A stretch of 64,000 nt of DNA from a virus: positions 1-64,000 of IMG/VR virus record IMGVR_UViG_3300037418_002133. The stretch is one strand, 5' to 3'. Shown piece by piece: positions 6,868-64,000 of the stretch. Under the pieces are notes generated by a model. The model saw nothing but the letters and a program-made list of their open reading frames with translations. It ran no database searches and was not told the DNA's origin. How positions within the stretch are numbered: the stretch's first letter is position 1; every line of letters begins with the position of its first letter. Position numbers and translations under genes: made by a program.

Positions 6868-6882
6868 CACGTTCGAAATCAG

Positions 6883-9955: not shown

Positions 9956-10035
9956 TTCAGATTGTTCTCTGCGTTGTTAGTGAGACTATAGCGATTTCAT
10001 CGCGGAAAGCGGTCGGCAAAAGTCAGAACTGACAT

Positions 10036-13555: not shown

Positions 13556-13609
13556 TACACTCTCGAATTAGACGCATCGTGCGCTTTGATGATGTGAATA
13601 TAGCGTCAT

Positions 13610-14368
13610 TCACTCGGTCGTGTGATTCTGTTCATATCGCAAGGCAATTGCGTTGCACATGGGATCCCGAACAATATCGGCCGCGGTAAACTCGATGAAG
13701 GCAACATTGCCGAGGCCGCGCAGCCGCCTGACGGCATCCGCAAGACCCGACTGACCCGGAATGTCCTTCTGGCGCGGATCACCATTGATGATGAATTTGG
13801 CGTTCTCGCCGATACGGGTCAGGAACATCTTCATCTGGGCCGGCGTGGTGTTCTGGGCTTCGTCCAGCAGTACCCAGCAATTCTTTAACGTGGAGCCGCG
13901 CAGGAGCCCCAGCGGACGCGCCTCAATCGTTCCCGCTTTCAGATGATACTCGACTGCCCCGGAGCCCAAACGCTCCTCCAGCGCGTCGCGAACGGGCCGG
14001 AAATACGGTTCGTATTTCTCGTCTAGCTCGCCCGGCAGAAAGCCGAGGCTCTCGCCGGCCTCGATCGCCGGGCGGGTCACGATGATTCGTTCGATCTTGC
14101 GCGTCTCAAGCTGTTCGGCGGCGCGGGCCGCAGCCCACCAGGTCTTACCCGTGCCAGCGGGACCGGTGCCGAAGACGACCCGGTTGTTCAATATGGCGAC
14201 GTCGTAACGCCGCTGATTTTCGGTGAGAGGTTTAAGAACAGCCTTGGCTGCTTTGACCGGCCGGCGCTGCGTTTCTGTTCGCACCAGCCTAAGCAACGGT
14301 CCGTGATCAGGCGTTTTTGCCATCCTCCGCTTCTGACGAGCGGTTGCGCGGTCCATCGAGCGGGCCAT
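13610..14368 (-). CDS. phoH: PhoH-family ATPase
   Basis: GPAGTGKT, LGFLPG, LRGSTL, LDEAQN, TRIGEN, GDPRQ. Confidence 0.95.
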   Translation of the reverse strand: MARSMDRATARQKRRMAKTPDHGPLLRLVRTETQRRPVKAAKAVLKPLTENQRRYDVAILNNRVVFGTGPAGTGKTWWAAARAAEQLETRKIERIIVTRPAIEAGESLGFLPGELDEKYEPYFRPVRDALEERLGSGAVEYHLKAGTIEARPLGLLRGSTLKNCWVLLDEAQNTTPAQMKMFLTRIGENAKFIINGDPRQKDIPGQSGLADAVRRLRGLGNVAFIEFTAADIVRDPMCNAIALRYEQNHTTE

Positions 14369-14834
14369 TCTTTACTCCGTTGGCAGGTTTGTTTTTGGTG
14401 GTTTTGAGCGACTTGATTCGAAGGGTCTGGATACGACCGCTCGTGACTGAGTTGTGCGCACGGGCGGCTCGAATCGCATCGACGGAGCTGGCGCCAGCCC
14501 ACATCGCACCCAAAGCGATGTCCGAGCCTGCACCAATTGAACAATAAGGACCGATCACAGGGATTGGATCGGGACTGAAGTTTTCGAACGCATTGACCTT
14601 GCCGTCGTCAGTGATGACCAACGCAGCCAGATCAGCCATTTTAGGATATTCAGATTCGTCGGCGCCGTTGCGGATCCAACGAATGAACGCCTGGATTTCA
14701 GAGAGACGCCCGGCGCATCCAACAATCACGCCGCGAACACGAAAGACCTTCCGAACGCCGTGAACATTGGTTTCACCTTCCCAACAAGAACTGTCGGCTG
14801 CGAGAACGCCAGCTCGGTACGCAACGGTCGTCAT
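14307..14834 (-). CDS. Ntn-hydrolase/proteasome-subunit (HslV-like) protein
   Basis: N-terminal MTTVAY...LAADS, SIGAGS..ALGAM. Confidence 0.75.
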   Translation of the reverse strand: MTTVAYRAGVLAADSSCWEGETNVHGVRKVFRVRGVIVGCAGRLSEIQAFIRWIRNGADESEYPKMADLAALVITDDGKVNAFENFSPDPIPVIGPYCSIGAGSDIALGAMWAGASSVDAIRAARAHNSVTSGRIQTLRIKSLKTTKNKPANGVKNGPLDGPRNRSSEAEDGKNA

Positions 14835-14845
14835 CGACCTACTCC

Positions 14846-15073
14846 TTAGACCGGAGTGGTCGCTCCAACCGGTCGAGCGCCGGAACCTGGCGCATTGGAA
14901 GTCGCGCCGTTCATATCGGCCCAGGTGATGACACCACCTCGATTGACGCGAACGAAATAGGCGTTGGTGTCATCGGTCCACAGGGTTTCGCTGATGGTCG
15001 ACAGGACGTCGGGAGCACCATCAAGAACGCGATTTTCCTCGTTTTGGGTCTGCGAAACGTCTGGCATCATCAA
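14846..15073 (-). CDS. Hypothetical protein
   Basis: GGAG RBS, just downstream of a palindrome copy. Confidence 0.55.
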   Translation of the reverse strand: MMMPDVSQTQNEENRVLDGAPDVLSTISETLWTDDTNAYFVRVNRGGVITWADMNGATSNAPGSGARPVGATTPV

Positions 15074-51412: not shown

Positions 51413-51712
51413 TTAGTGGAGAGCTTCGCCATCTTCCGGAACTGGATCCGGCGTTGCCATGAAGACGGTAAATCCTTTTGTCGTTGGCGCGATCGTGGCG
51501 CTCCGGTTGCCGTGCCTGGTCGTGGCGATCATGCCGTGTCGCTCCAGCGCGCGCAGCGAACAGGTGATCGCCTGTTTACTGACCGGGCCGTATGACACGC
51601 CGGCACAAAGATCGTTGGTGGTGATCTCTACGCCGGTTGACGTTGCCTCGCAGATCAGCCGCATGATCTCGCGTTGTTTCCGGGAATTGGCAAATTCGTT
51701 TCGCGCCGGCAT
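51413..51712 (-). CDS. Winged-helix DNA-binding protein
   Basis: SKQAITCSLRALERHGMI...PTTKG. Confidence 0.75.
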   Translation of the reverse strand: MPARNEFANSRKQREIMRLICEATSTGVEITTNDLCAGVSYGPVSKQAITCSLRALERHGMIATTRHGNRSATIAPTTKGFTVFMATPDPVPEDGEALH

Positions 51713-52620
51713 TACTCGCCTCGGAACGGCGCGTTAGGCGCCTGTCGGTCGAATGCGGTAAGGGGAAGACGCTGGGGAATGGTGCCGTGACGATCCGGAT
51801 TGGTCCAGATGCCGTACATTGGCGAAGCCAGCACAATCTGCTGGAGCCCCTTAATGATAGTCCTTTCGGACATGGCGTCAACCCTGCCCTGTCCGCGGTC
51901 GCGATTGTTGCCAGTCTTCTCAAGCGCGGAATGGCGATAGTAGAAGTCCTTGCAGAGCTGCAACAAACGCTCGCGCTCGGCCGGCGGTTTGGCTTGCAGC
52001 TCGGCCAGGATTGCCTCGAAATCCTGCGGACTGCTCTCGAAATGGGTCCGGAAGAACTTCAGCCCGATCTCGTATTTGTTGGCGTTCAACGGGCGCACGA
52101 AGCGAAAGCCCGCCTTCTGGCCGAACAGATTGAACTTCGACATCGAGGACTGGATCTCCATGAAGGTGTTGCCCTCCATGCGCGAGACCAGGTTCATCAT
52201 CCGGTAGCCGCAGCCGATGCCGCGATACATGGTGTCCACGACGAACCGCGAGACCACACGGAAGTTCTTGTTGATGAACTTGTACCGATAGGTGTTGGTG
52301 ATCTTGGTGTCGCCGGCGCCAGGCTTGAGATTCTTGAACACCAGATGCCGCTCCTTGAGCAGCCCCTTCGGGTTGCCGGTGACCAGCACGCCAATGGTCT
52401 CGCCGAACAGCGTCAGTTTCCAGAAATGCGGCCCGATCGGCAGGTTTTCCGCCTTGTAGTGAAGATCGTGCAGCAGATTCCAGTCAGAAATGTCTCCCTT
52501 CTCGACAAACATGCTCTCAAGCAGCGGGAAACAGGGCGCCGGTGCGTCCACACGCTCTATCAGCGTATCATATGCGTCAGCACTCTCGGACGCACCGGTG
52601 AGCTTCTCTGCGAACGGCAT
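51712..52620 (-). CDS. GNAT-fold (Mom-like) acyltransferase
   Basis: LHY motif, SRFVVDTMYRGIGCG acyl-CoA binding motif, M.KFNLF..KAGF; ATG at 52620. Confidence 0.8.
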   Translation of the reverse strand: MPFAEKLTGASESADAYDTLIERVDAPAPCFPLLESMFVEKGDISDWNLLHDLHYKAENLPIGPHFWKLTLFGETIGVLVTGNPKGLLKERHLVFKNLKPGAGDTKITNTYRYKFINKNFRVVSRFVVDTMYRGIGCGYRMMNLVSRMEGNTFMEIQSSMSKFNLFGQKAGFRFVRPLNANKYEIGLKFFRTHFESSPQDFEAILAELQAKPPAERERLLQLCKDFYYRHSALEKTGNNRDRGQGRVDAMSERTIIKGLQQIVLASPMYGIWTNPDRHGTIPQRLPLTAFDRQAPNAPFRGE

Positions 52621-52622
52621 GG

Positions 52623-52928
52623 TCAGTCGACGATCTGCCAATCCTCGGCGAGAAGATCGGTCTGCGACGCGACCCACGGCACAACATCGCCTTGAGCGGT
52701 CTTCATGTCGATGTGACCGTGATACTGGATCTCGGTGCCTTCCGGGTAGATCCCCAGAAGCGGCGGGCGATTCACCTTGAAGGTCGAGCCACGCACCAGA
52801 AACAGGAACATGCCCTTGCCGTTCCAGCCGGCACGGGCGACGCGCGCTCCATCCTTGATCGCAACGAGGGCGCTGGAAAACGAAAAGCCACCCTGTCTGG
52901 TTCGCTGCGTCAAAACTTCTTCGGTCAT
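52623..52928 (-). CDS. DUF2829 / Tad2-family protein
   Basis: FSSAL.AIK.G.RVARAGWNGKGMF...PWVASQTDLLAEDW. Confidence 0.85.
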   Translation of the reverse strand: MTEEVLTQRTRQGGFSFSSALVAIKDGARVARAGWNGKGMFLFLVRGSTFKVNRPPLLGIYPEGTEIQYHGHIDMKTAQGDVVPWVASQTDLLAEDWQIVD

Positions 52929-53560
52929 TCTGTCTTCTCCAGTTCAACTTTCTCGCGGAAACGCTTTGTCACCTTCAATGAGGCGCCGATCTCATCCGCC
53001 AGATCGGTGTGGGTGGTCGCGACGATCAGGGTCTTGCCGAGACGCCGGGCGGTCTTCTGCATCGAATAGGCGACACACTTCGCGGTGACGCGGTCGAGCA
53101 CGGCGCCGAACTCGTCGGCAACCCAGACGTCGGCGCCCTTGTCCATCAGCATTGCCAGCTTCAGCCGGTAGCGCTGTCCGTCGGAGAGTTCATTCGGCTT
53201 GCGGATATAGATCCAGGCGTCGGAAATGCCGGCCTTCGCCAACAGATCGGCCGCTTCGGTCGTGGTGTCACCAACGCACTCGATCACCGGCTTGTCCGGC
53301 GCCTCTAGCGCGTTCAGATCGGCAACCTTGAGACCCTTCTCGATCATCTGGTCGCGCAATTCGCGCAGCAGCAGCGACTTGCCAGACCCGGATTGACCGG
53401 TGATGTAGACCACGTCGCCCTGCCTGACCTCGACTTCGAGATCGTCGTAGATCACGAAACGCTTGTCCGAGAGACCAAGTCCAAAGGCTTCGGCAACTTC
53501 CAGTACGCGCGGCGTGCGGTCGACCGACGAGCTGAAGGACTTGTTGACGAGGTATTTCAT
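52925..53560 (-). CDS. Soluble ABC-type ATPase
   Basis: GQSGSGKS, LSDGQ signature, VADEF, TTH; no permease nearby. Confidence 0.88.
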   Translation of the reverse strand: MKYLVNKSFSSSVDRTPRVLEVAEAFGLGLSDKRFVIYDDLEVEVRQGDVVYITGQSGSGKSLLLRELRDQMIEKGLKVADLNALEAPDKPVIECVGDTTTEAADLLAKAGISDAWIYIRKPNELSDGQRYRLKLAMLMDKGADVWVADEFGAVLDRVTAKCVAYSMQKTARRLGKTLIVATTHTDLADEIGASLKVTKRFREKVELEKTE

Positions 53561-53922
53561 GCGCCGGGATCCTCGGGATCGTCATCGACGCTTTCTTCTT
53601 CCTCAATCTCGGCCAGGCGATCGCGATAACCGTCGATTTCTTCGCGAATTTTCATCTTCACCGAGTCGACCGCAAGATTGACCATCGCCAGTTGCTCGAT
53701 GGAGGTATCCATGCGGCTGACCAGCGCGCAGATCGGATTGTTCTGGTGAAGACCGGCAATAACCAGATGCGTCAGATCACCGGTCTTGATGCGCTCAAGG
53801 ATGTCCTCGCACAGCGCCAGTGATGTCTTGTCGACTTTCGGCTTACTTGCTTCGGTCGGATCGGGCGCGACAAACGCCTTGCGGGTAAAGGCGTTGATGA
53901 CCTTTGGGCTGTCGTCGCTCAT
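53557..53922 (-). CDS. Hypothetical protein
   Basis: Coupled ORF with acidic tail. Confidence 0.6.
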   Translation of the reverse strand: MSDDSPKVINAFTRKAFVAPDPTEASKPKVDKTSLALCEDILERIKTGDLTHLVIAGLHQNNPICALVSRMDTSIEQLAMVNLAVDSVKMKIREEIDGYRDRLAEIEEEESVDDDPEDPGA

Positions 53923-54581
53923 GCTGCCTGCTCCAATACGAACAGCAGCGCGTCAACGCCGGTCTTGTCGACCTTTCCCTCGATAATGGTGAGCAATTCC
54001 CGGATCTTGCGGCTCTGCTCGACGGTAACGCGCTTGAAACCAAGCGCGTCGGAGACTGGCGCCGCGGAGTGATCGACTTCGGCTTCCTTCGCCGAATTCT
54101 CCTCTTTCTGCTTTTCAACCGCCGTGGTGATGTTATCGACGAACATGCCATCGTCGATATCGGCGAAATCCGAGGTCATTCGGGTGATCTCGCTCTCGTC
54201 GAAGCCGATCGTGTCCATGTCGAAGCCGTCCTCGGCCAGTTCGGTGAGGGCCTGCTGAAGCAATTCGGTGTCGTATTCGGTCGAGGCGACCTGATTGTCC
54301 GAGAGCCGCAAGGCGTCCGCCTCGGCTTCGGTGAGATCGTCGCGCACCACGACGGGAATCTGGGTCCAGCCCAGCGACAATGCGGCGAGCCGGCGCCCAT
54401 GACCGGTAATGATGGTGCCGTCGGGGCGAATGTTCAGAGGGTTGGCGACGCCGAATTTCTGGATCGACTTGGCGAGCTTGGCGACGTGAGCGTCCGGGTG
54501 CTTCTTGGCGTTCTTCGGATGCACGACCAACTTGTCGATCGGCCACAACACAACAGGTCGTTTGGAATCAATTGTCGTCAT
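53919..54581 (-). CDS. ParB/Srx N-terminal domain protein
   Basis: NAKKH..LAKSI..FG..IITGHGRRLAA, RLSDN. Confidence 0.88.
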   Translation of the reverse strand: MTTIDSKRPVVLWPIDKLVVHPKNAKKHPDAHVAKLAKSIQKFGVANPLNIRPDGTIITGHGRRLAALSLGWTQIPVVVRDDLTEAEADALRLSDNQVASTEYDTELLQQALTELAEDGFDMDTIGFDESEITRMTSDFADIDDGMFVDNITTAVEKQKEENSAKEAEVDHSAAPVSDALGFKRVTVEQSRKIRELLTIIEGKVDKTGVDALLFVLEQAA

Positions 54582-54753
54582 CGTCGTTCATTCCTGAATA
54601 AATCGCCATCAATTCGTCGTCGTTGAGTTCGCGATCCTTGAATTTCTGCTCGAAAAACTCGCCAGCGCCGCAGTTTAGGCATCGCCGGGTAATTCGCGTT
54701 TCGCTGAAAAACTTGCAGTCCCGGCATTCCGGATGGCGAGGCTTGACGTACAT
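54568..54753 (-). CDS. Small Zn-finger protein
   Basis: CRDC...CLNC. Confidence 0.6.
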   Translation of the reverse strand: MYVKPRHPECRDCKFFSETRITRRCLNCGAGEFFEQKFKDRELNDDELMAIYSGMNDDDDN

Positions 54754-55404
54754 TCAGTCCTCAACGGCTCCGAAAAGCTGATGCACGAGGGCATCGCCGG
54801 CGTTCGTGAGGTCATCCGATGCGTTGAAATTCTGGCGCTTTCGGATCTTGCTGATCAGTTCGGTGATCTTCTCGGCATCGCCGAGTGTCACCTTGAAGCG
54901 CATGATGGTGTGGGTCTTCGGTGCGCGCTCGGGTTTGGGTTCGTCCGGCGCGGGCGCCTCGTCATATCCCGTCAGATCGTCGAGTTCATCGAGCGCTATA
55001 CTAACGGAATTGAAGATATTGTTGATATCGGTCTCAGTGAACGGCAGGAATTCCTTAACATTCGCGCCCTCTTCCATACTCTCCAGCATTTCAGCGAGGC
55101 GAATGGTGTCGTCGGCGCCGTAACGGGCGTTATCAGCGAGCGAAATCTTCTTCGCCTTGTCGTCGTTGATGTCGCCGAGATTGAAGATTGGAACCTGTTT
55201 CAGTCCCGCCGCCTTCGCGGCTTGCCAGCGATGTTCGCCGCCGATGATCTCGTAGGGATGATCCTCATCGTTAGTTTCGCGCACCACGATCGGCTTGAAC
55301 AAGCCAAGCCGGCGGATCGATTCCGCCAGTTTCTCCTCGTTTTCCGGAGAGACGATGTTGATGTTGAAGCTGTTCGGCCGAAGCAGGTCGATATCGACCA
55401 TCAT
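54754..55404 (-). CDS. ParB/Srx domain protein (start approximate)
   Basis: PN.FN.N, PIVVR, IIGGEHRWQAA. Confidence 0.85.
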   Translation of the reverse strand: MMVDIDLLRPNSFNINIVSPENEEKLAESIRRLGLFKPIVVRETNDEDHPYEIIGGEHRWQAAKAAGLKQVPIFNLGDINDDKAKKISLADNARYGADDTIRLAEMLESMEEGANVKEFLPFTETDINNIFNSVSIALDELDDLTGYDEAPAPDEPKPERAPKTHTIMRFKVTLGDAEKITELISKIRKRQNFNASDDLTNAGDALVHQLFGAVED

Positions 55405-55486
55405 TTGAACTGGCACCGAAGCGAAAACCTTATATAAGTCAGAACTGACTTTTACATAACCACGAAGATTGGTCCTTTGCAAGCCC

Positions 55487-57079
55487 ATGCCTGAAACCAT
55501 TACCATTGCCAGCAATGCCGTCATCGCCAAGATCATCAACGCCACCAATCCGGTCAAGGATCTGGTGTCGCAATGTCTGAGCTATGTCGTTGAGGGCGCT
55601 GAATTTATGTCGGCGTTCGCAACGTCCGGCTGGGATGGGCGTTCGAGCTTCTTTGCACGGCGCACCTGTACGTTCCCGGCAGGCTTCGTGCATATGGTGC
55701 ATGGCGAACTCAAACGCGCCGGCTACGAGGTTCGCATCGTCAAGCGCCCCAATCCTTTGCCGCTCGGTCCGGAAAATCCGATCGTCGACGAGTTCGGCAA
55801 TGACGATCCCCGCTACGACTTTCAGCCTCGAACGCTGCGCCAGATCGAAAAACACGGGCGCGGCATCGTTCAGGTCGCAACGGGCGGCGGAAAAAGCAAG
55901 ATCGCCAAGCTGATCGCCATGCGTTACGGGCGCCCGACGCTGTTTCTGACCACGCGCGGCGTGCTGATGTACCAGATGAAGGACGCCTTCGAGCAGGATT
56001 GCAAGGTTCGCACCGGTGTCATTGGTGATGGTCACTGGGCGCCGACCAAAGGGTTCAACGTCGGCATGGTGCAGACCCTGGTGTCGCAGCTCGCCGAACC
56101 GGATCTCAACGCGGAGATTCGTGAAGTTCTGCGCCAGAACACCGAGAAGGGCGAGGGTCGAACCAAGGCGCAATGCACGGAACTGGGCAATCAGCGGTTC
56201 ACGCTCAAGACCAAGATTCGCGCCCGTGTCATCAAGTTCCTCGAAATGATGGAAGTGGTGATCGGCGAGGAAGCGCATGAAGCCGGCGGAAACTCCTATT
56301 ACGAGATCCTGAAATACTGCAAAAACGCCAATATCCGGGTTGCCCTGACCGCGACGCCGTTCATGCGCGAGAACATGCTCGACAATATGCGGCTGATGGC
56401 TGCATTCGGGCCGATTTTGATCAAGGTGTCGGAAAAGACGCTGATCGATCGCGGCATTCTGGCAAAGCCCTACTTCATGTATCGCTCGCCGGCGCCGCAT
56501 CCGAAGCTGCGCAAGACCTCGCCCTGGCAACGCGCCTACGAACTGGGTGTGGTCGAAGGGCCGCATCGCAATGCCGATATTGCCGCACTAGCCAAGACCG
56601 CGGCCAATCATGGTCTGTCGGTGCTTATTCTGGTTCAGCGCAAAAAGCACGGCCCCTTTCTGAAGAAGCTGCTGGAATCTCAAGGTTTGCGGGTCAAGCA
56701 AATTCAGGGCGAGAACGACCAGAACGAGCGCAAAAAGGCGCTGAACGATCTCGCGGCCGGACGCATCGACGTTCTGATCGGATCCACCATCGTCGATGTC
56801 GGCGTCGACGTGCCCTCGATCGGCATGGTCATTCTTGCTGGCGCCGGCAAGGCAGAGGTGGCGCTGCGTCAGCGCATCGGCCGCGGAATGCGCGCCAAGA
56901 AGGTTGGCCCGAACGTGGTGTTCATCGTCGATTTTACCGACGAATTGAACAAGCACCTGCGCGAGCACGCGAAACAACGCCGCGCCATCGTCGAAACAAC
57001 CGACGGCTTTGTGCAGGGCATTCTGCCAAAGGGCCAGGATTTTCCCTGGCACCTGTTCGCGAAAAAGAAAGCAGCGTGA
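55487..57079 (+). CDS. Superfamily 2 helicase
   Basis: ATGGGKS, EEAH, LTATP, GVDVP, QRIGRGMR. Confidence 0.92.
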   Translation: MPETITIASNAVIAKIINATNPVKDLVSQCLSYVVEGAEFMSAFATSGWDGRSSFFARRTCTFPAGFVHMVHGELKRAGYEVRIVKRPNPLPLGPENPIVDEFGNDDPRYDFQPRTLRQIEKHGRGIVQVATGGGKSKIAKLIAMRYGRPTLFLTTRGVLMYQMKDAFEQDCKVRTGVIGDGHWAPTKGFNVGMVQTLVSQLAEPDLNAEIREVLRQNTEKGEGRTKAQCTELGNQRFTLKTKIRARVIKFLEMMEVVIGEEAHEAGGNSYYEILKYCKNANIRVALTATPFMRENMLDNMRLMAAFGPILIKVSEKTLIDRGILAKPYFMYRSPAPHPKLRKTSPWQRAYELGVVEGPHRNADIAALAKTAANHGLSVLILVQRKKHGPFLKKLLESQGLRVKQIQGENDQNERKKALNDLAAGRIDVLIGSTIVDVGVDVPSIGMVILAGAGKAEVALRQRIGRGMRAKKVGPNVVFIVDFTDELNKHLREHAKQRRAIVETTDGFVQGILPKGQDFPWHLFAKKKAA

Positions 57080-57097
57080 GAGCGCTATATTCTGATC

Positions 57098-57283
57098 ATG
57101 CGCAGATTAGTCGACCCCATTCACCTGTTTGACGCCAAGGCGCGGCCACTCTCTTCCTACGATGCCATGGAAAAGCGGATAGCGATGCTGGAACGCCAGC
57201 TCGCGCGCGTGTTGCGGCTGCTTCGCGGTCAGCGACTGCGAGACGGACCCTCCCCGCCCGACGACAAACCGATCATTCATTAG
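57098..57283 (+). CDS. Hypothetical protein
   Basis: Fills the gap in the operon. Confidence 0.4.
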   Translation: MRRLVDPIHLFDAKARPLSSYDAMEKRIAMLERQLARVLRLLRGQRLRDGPSPPDDKPIIH

Positions 57284-57339
57284 CTCGCTCAACGACCTGA
57301 GCGGGCACAGTCACGCCTTATAAAGAAAGTCAGAACTGA

Positions 57340-57951
57340 ATGACAAACCCCGACAGTCTTCCCCGCTACATCGGCATTTGCGGCAATCCGAAGTCCGGTA
57401 AGTCGCTGGTTCAGCAGATTCTGATGGAACATTACAACGTCACGCCGGTCGATGACGGTTTCATCCTACGTTCGATCGCCATGCAGCATATGGGCGCCAG
57501 TCACAACGACGTTCACACCCAAGAAGGCAAGGCGCAGTTGGCCTATTGGCCCGACAAGACGCCGATCCTTGATGATCGCACCGGCGAGCATATGACCTGG
57601 CGTCTCGTGCTCGGTCGCGTTGGTGAACAGCTTGAACGTCTGATCGGCCCCTATGTAATGCCGATGACCGCGTGCGCGGCGTTGAGCGGCCCAGGCCCCT
57701 TCTCGTTCGGCTCGGTGCGCAAGGTGCAGGGCCGCTACTTCAAGGAGCGCGGCGGACTGATCATCGGCGTGCGCAACCCGATGGCGCAGCCGACCGGCAA
57801 TGCTTTCGACGTGTTCGACGAGAGCCTGGTCGACGTCTGGATCGAGAACGACGCGCTCTACCGCGGACTGAGCCATCGCGAGGCATTGGCGGATCTGGAA
57901 ACCAAGGTTGATCAGCTTGTTGCTGACTGCTCTTGGGCGCGAGCCGCCTGA
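57340..57951 (+). CDS. Deoxynucleoside monophosphate kinase-like protein
   Basis: IGICGNPKSGKS P-loop, T.R.VL..VG, I.ND. Confidence 0.75.
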   Translation: MTNPDSLPRYIGICGNPKSGKSLVQQILMEHYNVTPVDDGFILRSIAMQHMGASHNDVHTQEGKAQLAYWPDKTPILDDRTGEHMTWRLVLGRVGEQLERLIGPYVMPMTACAALSGPGPFSFGSVRKVQGRYFKERGGLIIGVRNPMAQPTGNAFDVFDESLVDVWIENDALYRGLSHREALADLETKVDQLVADCSWARAA

Positions 57952-58769
57952 TGGACAAGAAATCCGACCTTCTTCAGGTGATCTACGACAATCAGCATGT
58001 CGGCTGGTTGAGCGATCATTACGGCGCCGGCATCATGAAGCGGAATCCGCGATTCATTCGGGTCATCAGAGACACGCTGGAGAGCACTCTGGACGTTGAA
58101 TCGGTCAAGTCGGAGACTGTCGATCTTCCTCTGATCGTGCGCAAATTTCGGATCGACGAGGCTGAACTTGTCTCTCGGAAATTCGATCGGCCTCTGATCG
58201 ATGTGCCGCCTTATGCCGTCGAAAATCGCTCTCCTCTCGATTGTAGCGTCACCTATCACTGGATCGCCGCGCTGATCACTCTCGATCAGTACGAATGGCT
58301 GTTCGATCGGGAAACCTTCATTCCGACCGACACCATGCCGGCTCTCGAAGAGATCAAGTCTTTTTCGGGAATGAAGCCGACGCGCGTGTGGCTTGATGAA
58401 TATTTTGAATCGCCCGTGCCGATGTTCGACTCGGCAGAAGAAGCGCACGCCTACGACCCGCTTGATGCGATTTTGCCCAAGAAGATGCCGTCCTTCCACA
58501 TCAAGGCGGAAGACATCGTCGCCGGCACGGTCACATCAACCAAGCTCACGTCGGGGCCGAGGCTCGCCGACTATGTCGAGACGCCGCGCAAATACGGCAA
58601 ATCCATCATGTTGGAAAAGGCAAAATCGGAGATCATCGCGAAGCTGGAAGCTGATTTCGCCAAGTCAATGACAGTTGGTCTTTCTGAACCAGAATATTCT
58701 AGGTCGGGTGTTCTAACCGCTGAGAAGGTCCGCGAGGTCATGATGAAGCTGGAGTCGATGAAGCGATGA
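57951..58769 (+). CDS. Hypothetical protein
   Basis: ATG at 57951 overlaps the upstream stop. Confidence 0.65.
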   Translation: MDKKSDLLQVIYDNQHVGWLSDHYGAGIMKRNPRFIRVIRDTLESTLDVESVKSETVDLPLIVRKFRIDEAELVSRKFDRPLIDVPPYAVENRSPLDCSVTYHWIAALITLDQYEWLFDRETFIPTDTMPALEEIKSFSGMKPTRVWLDEYFESPVPMFDSAEEAHAYDPLDAILPKKMPSFHIKAEDIVAGTVTSTKLTSGPRLADYVETPRKYGKSIMLEKAKSEIIAKLEADFAKSMTVGLSEPEYSRSGVLTAEKVREVMMKLESMKR

Positions 58770-59218
58770 GCGTCGAAAAGGAATATTTCAAAACCTCGAC
58801 GATATCGAACGACTTCTTTCGTTTAATTGCTGGTACGCAGTTGGGCGCAGGCTGCTTTCGCGAAGTTTATCGGTGCAGCATCGATCCTACGATGGTTATC
58901 AAATTCGAGGTCGGCTCCGGCGACTTCAACAATGTTGCCGAGTGGGATATCTGGAGCAATCTGAAGGATCACCCCAAGCTCGGTAAATGGCTGGCGCCGT
59001 GTATTGCCATTTCGCCATGCGGGTCGATTCTGCTTCAGCGCTATGCCGGGCCTCTGCCGGACAACAAGCTGCCCAAGAAAGTTCCGGCATTCTTCACCGA
59101 CATCAAGTCCGACAACTGGGGCCTGATCAACGGTCGGCCGGTCTGTCGCGACTACGGCCATCATCGCCTTTATACCGTCGGACCCTCCGCCAGGCTGATC
59201 AAGGCCAATTGGCGCTAA
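58766..59218 (+). CDS. Minimal protein-kinase-fold protein
   Basis: LGAGCFREVY, VIK, N..EW, DIKSDNWG, DYG. Confidence 0.7.
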   Translation: MSVEKEYFKTSTISNDFFRLIAGTQLGAGCFREVYRCSIDPTMVIKFEVGSGDFNNVAEWDIWSNLKDHPKLGKWLAPCIAISPCGSILLQRYAGPLPDNKLPKKVPAFFTDIKSDNWGLINGRPVCRDYGHHRLYTVGPSARLIKANWR

Positions 59219-59295
59219 TTTAGGCTTTTCCGAATCAACACCGTGCTTTATGGAACTCTCTTTAGCGATTTAGCGAAATCGTTAAGGGGAAATTC

Positions 59296-59931
59296 GTGAT
59301 AGCAATCGCCTGTCTGTCGCAGAAAGGCGGGGTCGGTAAATCGACCCTCGCCCGGCTCATCGCCAAGACCTATGCCTCGGGGCAATGGCGGGTCAAAATC
59401 GGCGATTTTAACGTCAAACAGAAAACCTCGGTCGATTGGGCGGCAATCCGGCTCAGTCAGAACGTCGAGCCCGAGATCCAGGCCGAAGCCTTCAACGACG
59501 TCACCAAGGCCATGCGTGACGACTTCGACCTGATGGTGTTCGACGGCAAGCCCGATTCAGACACCCAGACCATCCGGCTTGCCCAGGAAAGCGTCCTTAC
59601 GGTCATTCCAACCGGGGTCTCCTCGGACGACCTGGTGCCACAGGTGCGGTTCGCTCAGGAGCTGAAGATCCGCGGCATCGACAGCCGCAAGATCATCTTC
59701 GTCCTCAACAAGACCACAGACTCGCTCGCAGCCATCATGGATGCGCGCAACTTCCTCAAGACGGCCGGCTTTACAGTGGCGAAAAGCTGGCTCCCGATGA
59801 AAACCGCCTACATCAACGCCCACAATTCCGGTCGAACGTTGTCGGAGACTGACTTTCCGACCCTCAACGATCGTGCCGAAGCTCTTGCACAGGAGATCAT
59901 CGACCATGTCACCAGCCTCGAACGGGCCTGA
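59296..59931 (+). CDS. parA: ParA partition ATPase (type Ib-like, no N-terminal HTH)
   Basis: QKGGVGKST, D.N.Q, FDGKP. Confidence 0.9.
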   Translation: MIAIACLSQKGGVGKSTLARLIAKTYASGQWRVKIGDFNVKQKTSVDWAAIRLSQNVEPEIQAEAFNDVTKAMRDDFDLMVFDGKPDSDTQTIRLAQESVLTVIPTGVSSDDLVPQVRFAQELKIRGIDSRKIIFVLNKTTDSLAAIMDARNFLKTAGFTVAKSWLPMKTAYINAHNSGRTLSETDFPTLNDRAEALAQEIIDHVTSLERA

Positions 59932-60205
59932 AACCAAGGGCGTCAAAGTCCCCTCGCCTCCCCAGCGTCGCGGCATCATCGCCCAAGTCCCAACACCCGT
60001 CGCGGCGCCGGACAACCTGTCCAAGCCCAACTCCGGACTACAGGATATGAATTTCAAGATGTCGCCTGAATTTCATCGCGCCTTCAAAATCACCGCCTCG
60101 ATCCGCGGCATGGCGATGAAGGATTTGCTTGAAGCCTCGTTCCGATGCTGGGTAGAACATTACGGCGACGATCAAGCCAAAGCTCTCCTTCCTCCGAAAG
60201 AATGA
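59906..60205 (+). CDS. ParG/RHH-like partition partner
   Basis: Disordered N-terminus plus MNFKMSPEFHRAFKITA..GM.MKDLL. Confidence 0.7.
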   Translation: MSPASNGPETKGVKVPSPPQRRGIIAQVPTPVAAPDNLSKPNSGLQDMNFKMSPEFHRAFKITASIRGMAMKDLLEASFRCWVEHYGDDQAKALLPPKE

Positions 60206-60206
60206 C

Positions 60207-60437
60207 ATGCGTTCACTGATTTTGCTGTCCACGCTTCTGCTCGCCGGCTGCGGAGGTGGCTGGAATAGACTCGACCCGCCCCTGATTGATATGTCCGGCG
60301 TCGATCGCGCCAAGTACGACCAGGATCTCGCCTATTGCACCAAGCTCAAGGCGGAATCGACCTTCGTGGGCAATGCGCAGTTGATTAGCCGCTGCATGAC
60401 TGAACGCGGCTACCGGGTCACCAGCGCCAGAACGTAA
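60207..60437 (+). CDS. Small lipoprotein
   Basis: Lipobox LLAGC; C...CM.ERGY. Confidence 0.75.
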   Translation: MRSLILLSTLLLAGCGGGWNRLDPPLIDMSGVDRAKYDQDLAYCTKLKAESTFVGNAQLISRCMTERGYRVTSART

Positions 60438-60455
60438 ATCGATTTGAGGTTCACG

Positions 60456-60671
60456 ATGTCACTTCACGACGATCTCTTGCGAATGGCGCGTCTGGTTCAA
60501 AAGGACGAAGCGCGCATCGGCGTCTACTCTACCGGTGAGGTCATTGCTGTCGCGCTCATTCTCAATCGACCGGATCTGCTTCCACCCAGATACAGCAAGA
60601 TCCTCGAAGCGGTTGATCGGCTTGGCGAAGAGTGGTTCCAGGTCGCCATCCAGGTGCAGCGCGAACTCTAG
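60456..60671 (+). CDS. Hypothetical protein
   Basis: GAGG RBS plus ATG at 60456. Confidence 0.6.
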   Translation: MSLHDDLLRMARLVQKDEARIGVYSTGEVIAVALILNRPDLLPPRYSKILEAVDRLGEEWFQVAIQVQREL

Positions 60672-61160
60672 CCTGCGACAAGGTTAGGGCAATATTCCTA
60701 TTGGTGCGGGGATCCGGATGATGTATCCGGGAGTTGGCATGGGTCAATTCTTGTGACAAGGTTAGGACGGAAAAGCTGTCGAGGGGCCAGAAGGCAATGC
60801 CTTCGCTGCATCGCACAAAAACCTAAGACATCGCATCTGTTGCAATTATGCAACACACGACGCGTCCCGCGAAACGCGTGACATTTCCGCAACACAGCGT
60901 TTCTTGCGATTCTGTGTTTGTGCAGCGCACAATAAAATAAACACGATTTCGCATTGCAACATGCTATGCGCAAAATGCATAACACGATTTAGTTAAGTAG
61001 TGATAATTATGTCACACGTGCTGCTGCAACAAATCTGTAGCATGATCAAGTCACGAATTGTTACACTCTGTAACATCATGTGATTTGTTCGCGTTGCTGT
61101 AACACGTTATAACTTAGTCACGTTAGCAATGACGCTAACACTACAGAGTGAGAAACGACG

Positions 61161-61778
61161 ATGACGAAAGTTAATGACAAGATCGCGAACTACGTTGCAG
61201 AACTCAACAGCGCGCTTGACGCTCGCGCTTCGTATGAACACGACAAGAGCGCTGCGAACGACTCGATTCAGACGTGCATCGCAGCGCTTCGTAAGAGCGT
61301 CACACACGTCGATATTGCGAGCGTGCTACTCTCATGCGACGTCGATTCAAACTTCATCAATCGCAGCGAGCGTTCGAATAATCGTTATAACGTCTACGCT
61401 GCACAGAAAGTCGACAACGTCGCGCGCGCTGTCAAAAGCGTTGCAGAACTGAATCACTATTCGCTTGCGATCTTGCGCGTTGCGCTCGCTGTCGAAAAGA
61501 TCGACTCTAAGCTGTCGCACAAAGACGCTGTAGCAGCGTGCAGCGCGTCTGTGAAGCACAGCGACGCGAAGCGCGAATCAATCATCAAGTCGCTACGCTA
61601 CGCAAAGCACGTCGCTGCAAATACAGCGTCAACGCAATCGTCGTCGTCGATTAACGCGCTTCAAACGTGTCACATTCTGAGCGAAGCGCGCGATGCTGCG
61701 AACAACATCGTCTACAGCGTCAATCGCGAGAGCGAAGCGTTCAAGACGCTCGCGAAGAGATACGAACTCGCGATCTGA
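61161..61778 (+). CDS. 205-aa protein lacking Gly, Pro and Trp; possible C-terminal winged helix
   Basis: Intact ORF with GAGAAACGACG-ATG leader and downstream hairpin; fold is a guess. Confidence 0.8.
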   Translation: MTKVNDKIANYVAELNSALDARASYEHDKSAANDSIQTCIAALRKSVTHVDIASVLLSCDVDSNFINRSERSNNRYNVYAAQKVDNVARAVKSVAELNHYSLAILRVALAVEKIDSKLSHKDAVAACSASVKHSDAKRESIIKSLRYAKHVAANTASTQSSSSINALQTCHILSEARDAANNIVYSVNRESEAFKTLAKRYELAI

Positions 61779-61788
61779 CAACGCAATG

Positions 61789-61816
61789 CAGAGTGACGCT
61801 TCACAGCGTCACTCTG
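61789..61816. terminator. 12-bp hairpin after the island gene (terminator or processing site)
   Basis: CAGAGTGACGCT-tcac-AGCGTCACTCTG. Confidence 0.55.
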
Positions 61817-61880
61817 TAACATCACTTAATCAAGTCACCGCAAACACAGAGCTAGAACAATGCAGCATGAGAAACGACTA

Positions 61881-62045
61881 ATGAAGCAACGCGAATCAGC
61901 GCGCGTCGAAAAGTACAAGCGCGCGTTTGACTGCGACTCTGTTGACGCTGATTATCTATTCGACGACGTCGCACGCGACTGTGACGCGACGTTAGCAGCG
62001 ATCGAACTGCGAGAATCGATCACGCGCTACGCGATAGCGCACTAG
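61881..62045 (+). CDS. 54-aa acidic protein lacking Gly, Pro and Trp
   Basis: Same TGAGAAACGAC leader as 61161; ATG at 61881. Confidence 0.6.
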   Translation: MKQRESARVEKYKRAFDCDSVDADYLFDDVARDCDATLAAIELRESITRYAIAH

Positions 62046-62056
62046 ACGCGTGACAT

Positions 62057-62097
62057 AGTCGAAAGTCTATAGACGAAAGTTTATTAGACTTTCGACT
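62057..62097. repeat. 13-bp inverted repeat closing the island
   Basis: AGTCGAAAGTCTA...TAGACTTTCGACT. Confidence 0.8.
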
Positions 62098-62127
62098 GTG
62101 ACATTTAAGCCTCACTGTTGCTCTGAA

Positions 62128-62161
62128 GCCACTGTGGTATGCCCGCCACAGTGGCATTTTT
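62128..62161 (+). terminator. Rho-independent terminator
   Basis: GCCACTGTGG/CCACAGTGGC stem plus ATTTTT. Confidence 0.65.
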
Positions 62162-62169
62162 GCCACAGG

Positions 62170-62360
62170 CGAACCCCATGGGGAGGGTAAGGCAGACCTG
62201 AAATCCCAAGGATTTCAAGCGGTCTGCCGATCCCATGGATCCCACCGGTTCCTAATCCCATACCTAGTGACCGGTTCCCATGCCCATCCATGGCGATCGG
62301 TTCCGGACGCCAAAACCCATGGCAGGCTTCCTTGCCGGACAGGGCACCCATAGCAGGCGC
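62170..62360. repeat. CCATGG/CCGGTTCC-rich block 1
   Basis: CCATGG at 62176, 62233, 62288, 62317. Confidence 0.8.
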
Positions 62361-62380
62361 CCTCTCCTTTTGGCTGCTGG

Positions 62381-62548
62381 CTACTCCTCGGCTGTGCCAG
62401 GCACCATCCACACCGACGAGGAAGCCCCGTAGACGTCAGTACGACGAGCGAACATCGACGACATGCGAGCGATTTCCATGAGCTTGTTTATGCATCCGAA
62501 GCGCATAAGCCCAAACGTATTCAACTTGGGCTGATAGAGGATGATCAT
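62381..62548 (-). CDS. Small hypothetical protein
   Basis: GAGGA RBS plus ATG at 62548. Confidence 0.45.
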   Translation of the reverse strand: MIILYQPKLNTFGLMRFGCINKLMEIARMSSMFARRTDVYGASSSVWMVPGTAEE

Positions 62549-62558
62549 GGTGTTTTCC

Positions 62559-62630
62559 TCAGATGAAGAAGGCGGCGATGATGAAGGCCCCAACGATCAT
62601 GATGGGGTAGCTGATGAACTCGTCGAGCAT
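62559..62630 (-). CDS. 23-aa hydrophobic micropeptide MLDEFISYPIMIVGAFIIAAFFI
   Basis: ATG overlaps the upstream stop (TGATG); fills the gap between two genes. Confidence 0.55.
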   Translation of the reverse strand: MLDEFISYPIMIVGAFIIAAFFI

Positions 62631-62866
62631 CACTGGAACTCCACCGGTACGAAGCCGAGGCTGCGGCTGGCGTTCTCCAGGTGCGACCGGGCGATGTCGA
62701 GGGAATATATTCCGCTCTCGTCCTTGGAGATTTGCTTCACCGCAGCGTTGAGCCAGGTCAGGGCGTAGCGCAGGTGTTCCTCAGCGTCGGTATCGGCGAA
62801 GCGACCGATAGCGTTCAGGACGCTCATACGGGCGCGATTGACGAGTGCGAGGCGCTTGCTTCTCAT
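62630..62866 (-). CDS. Small hypothetical protein
   Basis: GGAG RBS. Confidence 0.6.
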   Translation of the reverse strand: MRSKRLALVNRARMSVLNAIGRFADTDAEEHLRYALTWLNAAVKQISKDESGIYSLDIARSHLENASRSLGFVPVEFQ

Positions 62867-63076
62867 TTTCGATCTCCGTGTTTGCTCAACACAAAGATCG
62901 TCGCATATCGCCTTGTGGGATGCGGTCGGGCGTATAAGGCGAGTTTATACGGCCTGGCGTTTACGGACCGGCCTGGCGATGGAAGACGGCCTGGCCGAGG
63001 ATGACCGGACCGGCCTGAAGCCCATGGAGCGCCATGCCTGCCCATGGAGGACCGAGGGATCTCTAAGGGCGCGTAA

Positions 63077-63110
63077 AACCCTATAGATATATAAATATAT
63101 CTATAGGGTT
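63077..63110. repeat. AT-rich palindrome with 16-bp arms
   Basis: AACCCTATAGATATAT-aa-ATATATCTATAGGGTT. Confidence 0.9.
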
Positions 63111-63123
63111 GGGATGCGAACGG

Positions 63124-63390
63124 CTACGCGAGGCAAAGCTCGCTGGACTGACGGGCTGCTTCTTCGATGCACAGCGCGACGAGGTGCTGGGCGTTGAAGG
63201 CTTTCTCGTGGAGCATCGCTTCGTTGATCGCGGGATCGATCTTGCTGATGGTCATTTCGTTGGTGTCGTAGTTGTAGGACGACGTGAACAGCACGGTATC
63301 TTTGTAGATCGCGCTGAAGGCGCATTCGGGGTTCATCGGGTGCGCGTCGTTGGAAAGCTCGATCTTGATGGTCTTGAGGGTGCTTTGCAT
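63124..63390 (-). CDS. 88-aa protein, GG-free coding strand (no Gly or Trp)
   Basis: GAGAG RBS; no CC on the + strand across the gene. Confidence 0.7.
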   Translation of the reverse strand: MQSTLKTIKIELSNDAHPMNPECAFSAIYKDTVLFTSSYNYDTNEMTISKIDPAINEAMLHEKAFNAQHLVALCIEEAARQSSELCLA

Positions 63391-63453
63391 GTTAGCTCTC
63401 GTTTGTGTGAACGTGAGAACTATCTCACGTTCACTTTTGGGATGCGAACGGGC

Positions 63454-63744
63454 TCAGACGGTCATGTCGAAGGAGATCTTCATGGTCTCGTCGACGATCA
63501 GCTTGCGGAGGGTTTCACTGGAGTTGCAGCGGTAGTAGACGCTGTCTCCCGCAGCAGCTTGCGCGTCGTTGGGATCGAACTCGCTGTCATGGAGCTGCGT
63601 GACGCGCACAGCGAAGCATTTGGTGTCGTCTTTGGCGATCGCGCACGCTTCGATGACGGTCCTTTGGTTCATGACGGAGAAGAAGCGCTCGCCTAAGTCT
63701 TGCGACATGAGGGAATCGAAAGTGGTTTTGTCGATCTGGTGCAT
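63454..63744 (-). CDS. 96-aa protein, GG-depleted coding strand
   Basis: GAGAG RBS, ATG at 63744, downstream of TATACT and the palindrome. Confidence 0.7.
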   Translation of the reverse strand: MHQIDKTTFDSLMSQDLGERFFSVMNQRTVIEACAIAKDDTKCFAVRVTQLHDSEFDPNDAQAAAGDSVYYRCNSSETLRKLIVDETMKISFDMTV

Positions 63745-63869
63745 GTTTTGCTCTCGCTGTGAAAATAAGTCAGTTCTGACATACGACAGTATAGCTAGGA
63801 ATGCGAGCGGCGGCTCGTGGTGCGTCCGTTGGGGTATCGAGCTGGGTCTGTAGCTTAGGAGCGCTAAGG

Positions 63870-64000
63870 ACGCACCATGGGGCTTCCCTAGCGATTTCCC
63901 ATGGGAAGCCATGGTTCGCCTCGGGACACCACGGCCGCGCCCTCTCCAAAAATCCGCCTTGGTTCGCCAATCGGTCGGTCCCATGGACCCCACCGGTTCC
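63870..64000. repeat. CCATGG-rich block 3
   Basis: CCATGG at 63875, 63899, 63909, 63981; 63979-64000 matches 62231-62252 at 21/22. Confidence 0.8.

Follow-up and report, generated by a model that had tools for sequence, protein, structure and literature searches.

Why should a phage-plasmid write one of its transcription units almost entirely without the steps GG and CC? The question is raised by a window of 64,000 nt (positions 1 to 64,000 of IMG/VR record IMGVR_UViG_3300037418_002133) from a soil phage-plasmid of 116,086 bp. A first-pass annotation of this DNA had proposed that a GNAT/ABC/ParB gene module writes a GG/CC mark in packaged DNA as an anti-restriction device, that host RNA polymerase cannot copy the marked template, and that a mark-free cassette is read first, its 205-aa product then licensing, demodifying or activating the remainder.

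A transcription unit free of GG and CC

The purged stretch, called here the island or tier 1, lies at 60888-62109 on the plus strand (1223 nt, 49% GC) and comprises a single transcription unit and the control region that precedes it. It contains no GG and one CC (at 61838), while about 117 are predicted by its base composition together with the genome GG/CC observed/expected (o/e) ratios, which are ordinary (0.75/0.82). It is the sole such stretch in the 116-kb element, where the largest other gap free of GG and CC is 84 nt, and a comparable gap is absent for all other dinucleotide pairs except TA, which is rare in general. In the island CG (o/e 1.96) and GC (o/e 1.68) are enriched, which shows that G and C were retained but rearranged; AC and GT are also up, TC and GA are not the steps that rise, and TC is not depleted (o/e 1.21).

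The purge begins in a non-coding region (60888-61160, plus strand), presumed from its sequence to hold promoter and operators: it carries repeated GCAACA and TGTCAC words, an inverted repeat TGTTACA-N3-TGTAACA (61059-61075) and one sigma-70-like match (60979-61007). Two plus-strand genes follow, gene 1 (61161-61778, 205 aa) and gene 2 (61860-62045, 61 aa), and neither product contains Gly, Pro or Trp. The first genes had been described as fully purged, with starts at 61161 and 61881; the purge was confirmed, 61881 being an internal ATG of the 61860-62045 gene. In the purged units GAG-type words take the place of GGAG at the ribosome sites; these sites, like the hairpins, have been rebuilt so as to avoid GG and CC. 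The unit is closed by a terminator hairpin with a T-run (62128-62161, plus strand), and the first steps to reappear past the island are CC at 62110 and 62129, and GG at 62136. The stretch downstream of this terminator is C-rich and G-poor; a cluster of intergenic CCCATGG/GGTTCC repeats (62170-62350) is C-rich on the island sense strand, and 17 of the 27 CCATGG sites in the genome fall at 62176-65912. The gene for the ParA partition ATPase (59296-59931, plus strand) serves as a landmark, flanking the island in all relatives.

The purge is conserved and under continuing selection

Exactly one island each was found in at least 20 related phage-plasmids of Hyphomicrobiales (the pLM21S1/RHEph10/B1VFA family), from Rhizobium, Sinorhizobium, Shinella, Methylobacterium, Methylocystis, Faunimonas and metagenomes. 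These islands always contain a winged-helix protein of about 200 aa that is a recoded, short paralog of a normal neighbour; the small cargo genes downstream of it are not conserved, and neither is gene 2 of the present island, which occupies this variable cargo position. In some relatives the two-strand purge reaches up to about 440 nt 5' of the start codon. Islands of close relatives differ from one another at 77-411 sites, yet at most one GG/CC is present, while 26-27% of random substitutions would create one. Selection for the GG/CC-free state is therefore strong and ongoing.

In the present element, gene 1 is a shortened, recoded paralog of the neighbouring 280-aa gene (genome positions 64079-64921), and where the 280-aa product has Gly the island product has N, D or H, mostly N or D. 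Gly, Pro and Trp are all absent from 54 of the 70 members of the gene 1 family. The product is modelled with a confident fold (pLDDT 95.4), and its winged-helix structure matches have Z scores of 7-7.8. The model points to a winged-helix DNA-binding regulator, and would fit a regulatory or licensing role; the suggestion that this protein licenses or activates other genes agrees with such a fold (pLDDT 95), whereas the suggestion of a demodifying enzyme does not.

The island might have arisen by mutation, if rounds of hypermutation linked to transcription, such as a CC-specific deaminase would cause, had erased GG and CC with the step itself unselected. Island GC is 8-17 points under genome GC in the relatives compared, and the change of paralog Gly to mostly N/D can be reached by G-to-A mutation. 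However, G and C are kept as CG and GC, which does not fit decay, and the increase concerns CG, GC, AC and GT, not TC/GA. The ORFs are intact and the fold is kept across 70 members, and the rebuilding of ribosome sites and hairpins is equally against this origin, which we hold to be very improbable.

The ban is strand-asymmetric and ends at terminators

Sense-strand steps were counted in the island genes. Both GG and CC were absent from 15 genes; five leaky genes had 1-6 sense CC and 0-1 sense GG (five of five), and two relaxed genes had 17-18 GG vs 47-52 CC. No case of the reverse bias, with GG looser than CC, was found among the island genes compared. The ban is thus strand-asymmetric, GG of the message strand being always the stricter, and this is new in the present analysis.

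The neighbouring tier 2 is a two-gene operon on the minus strand (63080-63826) whose message strand is nearly GG-free with normal CC: the plus strand has 5 CC vs 28.5 expected, and 58 GG. As its genes lie on the minus strand, their messages are without GG, not without CC, and the earlier description of a second tier purged on one strand is borne out. The operon has a predicted promoter (-10 GCTATACT, 63788-63795), an operator (GTCAGTTCTGAC, 63769-63780) and a terminator hairpin (63078-63110), all on the minus strand; the promoter itself has both GG and CC. Its gene 1 (63454-63744, minus strand, 96 aa) is taken to start at the ATG behind GAGAGCAAAAC, the 179-aa ORF listed for it being over-extended; its gene 2 (63124-63390, minus strand, 88 aa) encodes no Gly or Trp and three Pro. 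Tier 2 of G001 likewise lacks sense GG only, and the Rhizobium group shows a weaker form of this pattern.

The purges of tiers 1 and 2 both track transcription-unit boundaries: they stop at terminators, and both units end where the terminator hairpins restore GG/CC. This, too, is new here. Since the pattern is conserved and bounded by transcription units, the strand-aware logic of the first-pass annotation, in which something reads GG/CC, was justified.

A message-strand bias bounded by the transcription unit could also reflect intrinsic tuning of expression, with no external agent: loss of GG would remove Shine-Dalgarno-like words and pauses, and loss of CC would weaken Rho loading, so that neither transcription nor translation of the unit is interrupted. 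The C-rich, G-poor stretch after the island terminator agrees with this idea. Nevertheless, structural genes, which are presumably highly expressed, are not purged and the island is unique in its genome; Rho binds TC as well, yet these steps are not lowered, and island RNA is no less structured than a GC-matched background. Loss of all Gly, Pro and Trp and of the unit's own GGAG ribosome site would in addition be a high price. We consider such tuning quite improbable.

The asymmetry bears likewise on CRISPR. GG and CC are known PAMs (CC for type I-F, NGG for type II-A), and a PAM-free stretch would be neither targeted nor sampled for spacers; genome-wide PAM depletion in phages is documented (PMC12174588). 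PAMs work on either strand, however, and leave the one-strand tier and the excess strictness of GG over CC unexplained; a phage is not rescued by shielding 1% of its genome, and the genome-wide GG/CC ratios are ordinary. Little credence can be given to PAM avoidance.

A third possibility is a frequently cutting or nicking DNase that prefers GG/CC and is active at entry, made by the host, or by the phage against host DNA, from which the island must survive. The ends of B1VFA are fixed and bear a direct terminal repeat, 3.6 kb long there and about 3.9 kb in V1VFA-S, so that the DNA has a defined leading end (PMC12509600). Island, tier 2 and repeats together cover about 3 kb, repeat clusters flank the purged units, and a double-strand cutter predicts the two-strand purge of tier 1. 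The island would then be comparable to T5 pre-early DNA: the first-step-transfer region in the terminal repeat of T5 holds the few genes that are expressed first, at a leading end that is defined, as the fixed ends and 3.6-3.9-kb repeats of this family would allow, but T5 avoids particular 6-bp sites and the island a dinucleotide. Against escape from a nuclease, the B1VFA record begins 42 kb away from the B1VFA island, within an array of co-directional genes, a reader of double strands accounts neither for the tier purged on one strand nor for the consistently stricter ban on GG than on CC, the tier-2 promoter has GG and CC, and the remaining genome would require separate protection. This explanation is unlikely.

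No evidence ties the GNAT/ABC/ParB module to the island

The module proposed as the writer of a mark lies on the minus strand. A GNAT-like protein of about 302 aa (51712-52620; phrog_886 at 2.6e-118) had no Pfam match; its ESM Atlas look-alikes are GNAT proteins (0.92-0.97), its RGIGAG motif is invariant and JGI names it 'ABC-type ATPase with predicted acetyltransferase domain'. Together with the ABC ATPase that comes next (52925-53560, 211 aa; ABC_tran, PF00005 at 1.6e-12; phrog_293) it forms a split version of the protein so named. Between them lies a Tad2-like (Thoeris anti-defence 2) ORF (52623-52928; PF11195 at 1.8e-25), present in some relatives only. Two ParB/Srx N-terminal domain (ParB_N) proteins follow, of 220 aa (53919-54581; PF02195 at 6.7e-07; phrog_930 at 4.8e-63) and 267 aa (54754-55557; PF02195 at 6.1e-17; phrog_723 at 1e-58).

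The module is real and highly conserved (65-85% identity among relatives; 734 relatives at E<=1e-10) and adjoins terminase. It is a core gene set, present in 14 of 14 compared relatives, so its co-occurrence with the island cannot discriminate. Among the relatives compared, none had an island but lacked the module, as a mark would have it; the two island-less elements (a M. oryzae plasmid and a Roseospira element) both have the module, which therefore does not enforce the island. Evidence linking module and island, a link drawn only by the first-pass annotation, was looked for and not found.

Mom of phage Mu is assigned the GNAT fold, and DpdB, the partner of DpdA in 7-deazaguanine modification, is a ParB-like ATPase serving in DNA modification, so that both components resemble those of the module. 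However, the module showed no signature of Mom, of TGT/DpdA or of a methyltransferase, and the Mom and DpdA/DpdB marks are not known to block host transcription. We know of no mark-free cassette described for these systems, and of no case in which a phage marks its own genome in a way that stops host RNA polymerase. No methyltransferase was found in pLM21S1 (PMC5537653).

The anti-restriction rationale was not supported either, as these genomes rely on site avoidance. GTAC has no site in 10 of 15 genomes of the family; GGGCCC, TGGCCA and CCCGGG are under-represented (o/e 0.39-0.53, GGGCCC 0.39), as other palindromes are, and the median palindrome o/e is 0.87 with GG/CC vs 0.80 for the others. 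The bulk genome thus does not act as if GG/CC were masked, which speaks against a protective mark. If the copied DNA strand were marked, the asymmetry (no CC on that strand) and the two tiers would be explained just as well as by the reading favoured below; a genome-wide mark written by this module is nonetheless the less likely of the two, and we regard it as doubtful.

A proposed target-free unit and its known counterparts

We tentatively favour, with a probability of about 0.4, that the island is a target-free regulatory or early unit escaping a putative agent whose most likely substrate is nucleic acid that is transcribed or single-stranded. In the infected cell, this agent would act at GG of the message-sense strand (in mRNA, or at the opposite CC on the copied strand) and more weakly at the GG/CC step of the other strand. 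Genes needed during its activity would have been rewritten without the step; the unit would supply the recoded winged-helix paralog of the 280-aa regulator, then variable small cargo genes, and tier 2 would be under the message-strand ban only. A target in RNA alone does not simply predict the two-strand purge of tier 1, for which one would have to assume in addition that the agent also acts, more weakly, on exposed template DNA, or that antisense transcription occurs. To our knowledge no GG-specific enzyme acts on RNA or single-stranded DNA, and PADLOC, Pfam and PHROGs gave no candidate GG-acting enzyme among the relevant phage ORFs.

The closest counterpart is CmdTAC. CmdT ADP-ribosylates the adenine of GA in single-stranded mRNA, which blocks translation, and modifies single-stranded DNA more weakly (PMC11618068); the agent might similarly target mRNA first and exposed DNA strands second. 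Such a dinucleotide-specific defence enzyme would select for message-strand, transcript-bounded avoidance, as in the island. CmdT reads GA, however, whereas the island lacks GG and tier 1 is purged on both strands, and GA-free phage genes are not reported in PMC11618068. Neither for these hosts nor for the phages was an enzyme resembling CmdT identified.

MazF provides a second likeness: ACA-less messages resist this endoribonuclease and alone are translated while it is active. It reads at least three bases, in contrast to the two-base step of the island, and we know of no GG-specific RNase and of no natural ACA-less genes that are recoded paralogs.

Finally, restriction-site avoidance and CRISPR PAM depletion reportedly occur in phages, where a short word read by an enzyme is selected out, as happens genome-wide with GTAC in this family. 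The island differs in that its word is of two bases and its purge concerns one transcription unit, about 1% of the genome, is strand-asymmetric and overrides protein composition, at the cost to the regulator of every Gly, Pro and Trp.

A transcription unit without GG or CC

Between positions 61001 and 62000, 500-nt windows contained no GG and a single CC at about 50% GC. The exact gap in GG extends from 60794 to 62135 and the gap in CC from 60888 to 62109, apart from one occurrence at 61838; about 117 GG plus CC were expected from the composition of this region, hereafter called the island. Elsewhere in the genome, the longest stretch lacking both is 84 nt; other dinucleotide pairs show nothing like the island. 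Its G and C are kept as CG (observed/expected, o/e, 1.96) and GC (o/e 1.68). The island (60888-62109, plus strand) carries two genes, 61161-61778 (205 aa) and 61860-62045 (61 aa), both products of which are devoid of Gly, Pro and Trp, and a terminator hairpin directly follows the end of the unit. The island proteins matched nothing in Pfam, PHROGs, PADLOC, NCBIfam or PDB sequences, and a tRNA and Rfam scan of 58-64 kb gave no match. The idea that the purge makes the RNA unstructured was rejected for the island, where the minimum free energy was -45.2, compared with -41.5 predicted from GC content.

Two features of the neighbouring DNA were observed. CCATGG sites are concentrated between 62.1 and 66 kb, where 17 of the 27 genome copies lie in intergenic clusters, with TTCGCC/GGCGAA repeats, flanking each small transcription unit (window 62170-62350, 63020-63050 and 63870-64020; genome 65029-65240 and 65912); these clusters could serve as protein-binding iterons or as boundary elements. 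The minus strand at 62381-62866, between the island and the operon described below, contains two or three small ORFs, one of them strongly hydrophobic, which have normal GG and CC frequencies and no family match.

Strand asymmetry of the ban

Each island gene retrieved from the family was oriented by its message strand before GG and CC were counted. Fifteen genes were strict (no GG, no CC); five were leaky, with one to six CC and zero or one GG (G003, Faunimonas, pRlX6, L019 and G001; G and L numbers designate related genomes or contigs); two were relaxed, with 17-18 GG compared with 47-52 CC. The reverse pattern, more GG than CC in the message, was never encountered, GG being the stricter ban in seven of seven non-strict relatives. 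This asymmetry is new in the present analysis. It indicates that GG in the message, or equivalently CC in the copied strand, is the primary target of the ban, with a secondary ban on the opposite strand. Purely duplex readers are thereby ruled out as the sole cause; among the explanations considered, a duplex nuclease acting on the DNA that enters first, tuning of expression, avoidance of CRISPR protospacer-adjacent motifs (PAMs) and hypermutation each fail at least one observation. PAM depletion (CC or NGG), for example, predicts a strand-independent loss throughout the genome, whereas the genome-wide o/e is 0.75-0.82 and the purge is local and strand-asymmetric.

A second operon, on the minus strand (63080-63826; genes 63454-63744 and 63124-63390), has 5 CC on the plus strand compared with 28.5 expected, and 58 GG, so that its messages are purged of GG only. 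A phage-type promoter with its GTCAGTTCTGAC operator lies at the start of this operon, and a hairpin whose stem restores GGG/CCC at its end. Across the family, the message-strand purge of GG only, downstream of the long paralog of the island gene (genome 64079-64921, 280 aa), is strong in this element and in G001, of moderate strength in the Rhizobium group and weak in the other members. The avoidance is message-stranded and bounded by the transcript, as the purge ends at terminators (boundaries being placed from the sequence). Message-strand bias and transcript-like boundaries together point to an agent that acts during or after transcription. The promoter class TGCC-N7-TTCCG-N11-GCTATA is only 2- to 3-fold poor in upstream sense GG, and promoters therefore do not decide between the DNA and the RNA level.

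The full consensus of these promoters, TGCC-N7-TT(T/C)CCG-N11-GCTATA(A/T)T, has at least 13 copies, including minus-strand copies at 9987-10016 and 63795 in the window and within 72755-109243 of the genome; annotations of relatives include sigma-factor genes. The palindrome GTCAGWWCTGAC occurs 28 times genome-wide, in most cases directly after a GCTATA-type -10 (window positions 2383, 6847, 10022, 15098, 18472, 26390, 45563, 51316, 55438 and 63769, for example). Sequence and position suggest a dispersed operator that would be bound by a single master repressor, of the kind known from P1; the promoter of the second operon carries a copy, the island none.

Conservation of the island in a phage-plasmid family

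The window covers the first 64 kb of a single 116,086-bp virus record from rhizosphere/soil metagenomes. Seven metagenomes contain the element, all as contigs, and comparison with four of them gave no useful variant, end or junction. DNA and protein matches, which in RHEph10, B1VFA and pLM21S1 include terminase, portal and ABC genes, group it with Rhizobium phages RHEph10, B1VFA, V1VFA-S and the RHph series, and also tie it to the plasmid-prophages pLM21S1 (Sinorhizobium), pRlX6 (Rhizobium) and pAMS5a (Methylobacterium) and to a Shinella plasmid. It encodes a RepC-type plasmid replication protein (3854-5008; PF03428, 2.9e-39; PF11800, 1.9e-19), a ParA partition protein and siphovirus structural and terminase proteins in the common gene order; its size is within the family's range of about 115-120 kb, and 69 core ORFs are common to it and all compared genomes. 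RepC, ParA, the structural and terminase genes and these matches place the element among the phage-plasmids of the pLM21S1 / RHEph10 / B1VFA type, from Hyphomicrobiales (SSU5 supergroup).

The survey drew on seven annotated records, on 12 contigs from IMG/VR or genome assemblies and on 12 complete genomes, which were scanned over their full length. Exactly one island, adjoining ParA, was present in every close or distant member retrieved, with the exception of two lineages. The islands of relatives measure 0.7-1.7 kb and have 46-54% GC within genomes of 56-67% GC; each encodes a Gly/Pro/Trp-free protein of 170-236 aa followed by small non-conserved ORFs. The first island-less lineage consists of the M. 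oryzae H33R-06 plasmid and a similar contig (L023), the second of a distant Roseospira element. The M. oryzae ortholog shares 60% identity with its pAMS5a counterpart and still contains only two Gly and one Pro, and in its DNA CC has returned fully and GG partly, which looks like a recent relaxation. A further state, intermediate between strict and relaxed, was observed in L024 / G001 (IMG/VR UViG_2918987250, 12800-15000): this leaky island spans 2.2 kb, carries three Gly/Pro/Trp-poor genes and has, in message orientation, about 5 GG compared with about 22 CC.

Among the B1VFA, V1VFA-S, pRlX6 and pLM21S1 islands, 77 to 411 aligned positions differ and at most one GG or CC is present, although about 26-27% of random substitutions in these islands would create one. 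The island is thus maintained by selection and is not a product of decay. The B1VFA and V1VFA-S islands are 16% divergent, while the two genomes are 95.65% identical (PMC12509600), which shows that the island evolves fast inside its constraint.

The island protein and its long paralog

The island protein shows homology to the last ~170 residues of a longer protein encoded nearby (280-325 aa; genome 64079-64921 in this element), whose composition is normal. Conserved Gly residues of the long copy are replaced by N, D or H in the island copy, which also lacks the acidic N-terminal extension. Of 70 relatives retrieved from databases for the 205-aa protein, 54 lack G, P and W, and the remainder have only a few. 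Both AlphaFold models are confident: the island protein has a pLDDT of 95.4, and in the long copy residues ~70-269 exceed 90. Winged-helix DNA-binding domains matched by the C-terminal half include those of MarR, ArsR/SmtB, TubR and histone H1/H5. With VIA-align (residues about 95-202), MarR, H1/H5 and ArsR-type chains gave Z scores of 7.0-7.8, which are middling values; Foldseek gave a winged-helix probability of up to 0.99 for the paralog, but with E>0.1, and no Pfam family supports the winged-helix assignment. From these models, we read both proteins as probable DNA-binding regulators.

The GNAT/ABC/ParB module and the proposed marking model

The first-pass annotation had proposed that this module writes a mark on GG or CC in packaged DNA, and that the mark-free island is read first, its product licensing, demodifying or activating the rest of the genome. 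The ORFs of the 51.4-56.6 kb region encode two ParB/Srx-domain proteins (53919-54581 and 54754-55557), an ABC ATPase (52925-53560), a GNAT-like protein (51712-52620), a Tad2-like insert and proteins of no assigned function. The GNAT fold is predicted from an invariant RGIGAG motif, ESM Atlas look-alikes and the JGI name 'ABC-type ATPase with predicted acetyltransferase domain'; the protein had no match in Pfam, NCBIfam or PDB, and a profile search gave no solved relative. The COG-type fused protein combines GNAT motif A and an ABC ATPase in one polypeptide, whereas here they are encoded by separate genes with the Tad2-like ORF between them; on present annotation the pair is a split form of this 'ABC-type ATPase fused to a predicted acetyltransferase domain'. 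The Tad2-like (Thoeris anti-defence) ORF, at 52623-52928 on the minus strand, is found in only a few relatives. Domain searches of the module revealed no methyltransferase, TGT/DpdA or Mom signature.

Each of the 14 compared genomes carries all core parts of the module, both island-less ones included. The module thus exists without an island, and its co-occurrence with the island, which had been suggested as a check, cannot inform on the link. From its restriction sites, the bulk of the genome does not look masked at GG/CC, as avoidance of sites that contain these dinucleotides is not relaxed: o/e is 0.39 for GGGCCC, 0.46 for TGGCCA and 0.53 for CCCGGG, with a median of 0.87 for GG/CC palindromes compared with 0.80 for others. 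GTAC is absent from ~117 kb in 10 of 15 family genomes (pAMS5a, the M. oryzae plasmid, pLM21S1, V1VFA-S, B1VFA, RHph_N1_10, the Shinella plasmid, G001, G003 and G005); pRlX6 has two sites, and three non-avoiding members have 138-170, the element studied here having 138. This loss is classical restriction-site avoidance taken to completion. CACGTG and GTGCAC are depleted 5- to 10-fold in the family. In conclusion, the family defends itself by site avoidance, from which GG/CC-containing sites are not exempt. The observations on which the marking model was built are confirmed and extended, but the mechanism it proposes is supported only in part and the link from module to mark, which is central to it, is unsupported. 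A self-written mark would account for the strand asymmetry as well as an agent directed at RNA or single-stranded DNA does; it gains nothing from the comparative tests, loses by the restriction-site result, and we consider it improbable.

In a gene-content screen, the island was tracked best by two minus-strand genes (genome 81157-82350 and 82344-84887; L111:3157-4350 and 4344-6887). The former is rIIB-like (ESM Atlas 0.93) and the latter encodes a GHKL ATPase, which is probably rIIA-like, after the rIIA protein of T4. Both are missing from the two island-less elements, the M. oryzae plasmid and the Roseospira element, which we read as having shed lytic-cycle genes. Two island-bearing elements show losses as well: pRlX6 lacks the pair and V1VFA-S lacks the GHKL ATPase gene. 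The pair was set aside as writer or mechanism.

Discussion

The phenomenon is unusual, conserved and experimentally tractable: a two-base step is avoided totally within one transcription unit, strand-asymmetrically and across genera, which forces a well-folded, probable regulator to do without Gly, Pro and Trp. Literature searches found no earlier description of such a cassette. The avoidance would imply that a dinucleotide-reading activity, outside the catalogues of defence and phage-takeover systems, operates in infected soil bacteria, and the recoded paralog pairs show how far a protein fold tolerates the loss of three amino acids. Natural relaxed lineages (the M. oryzae plasmid, L023 and the leaky G001) and cultured phages (B1VFA, V1VFA-S and the RHEph10 group) provide ready experimental material.

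All observations are consistent with a target-free unit, in which a regulator and its few cargo genes would have to function while some agent acts at GG/CC. This agent may target mRNA or the strands that transcription exposes; alternatively, the copied strand may carry a lesion or mark. In the boldest version of this reading, to which we give a probability of about one in four, a phage- or host-borne enzyme would disable GG-bearing strands, messages first and then exposed DNA, so that only the recoded regulator and its few cargo genes would still work; the self-marked genome with its mark-free bootstrap cassette would be a variant of this switch. If the agent were a self-written DNA mark, the island would represent a new way to order phage gene expression; if it modifies mRNA or single-stranded DNA, the island would be the trace left in evolution by a CmdT-like mechanism of other specificity.

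Among known systems, a T5-like first-step-transfer region has fixed ends and a long terminal repeat, which in the relatives are known by literature only: direct terminal repeats of 3,605 bp in B1VFA and 3,939 bp in V1VFA-S (PMC12509600). The 67-190 bp repeats at contig ends stem from overlaps in assembly and the start of the B1VFA record is arbitrary, so neither places the terminal repeat. DarT1 was rejected as a GG reader, no consensus motif being reported for it (PMC11543638), and no enzyme with GG specificity acting on messages was recognized among the phage ORFs scanned. CmdT ADP-ribosylates GA dinucleotides of single-stranded RNA and, to a lesser extent, of single-stranded DNA (PMC11618068). 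By analogy, a GG-reading counterpart would explain the strict ban on the message strand together with the weaker ban on the other strand, an explanation that we hold at somewhat under even odds. CmdT is the one documented dinucleotide-specific agent of such a kind; it reads GA, whereas the island bans GG.
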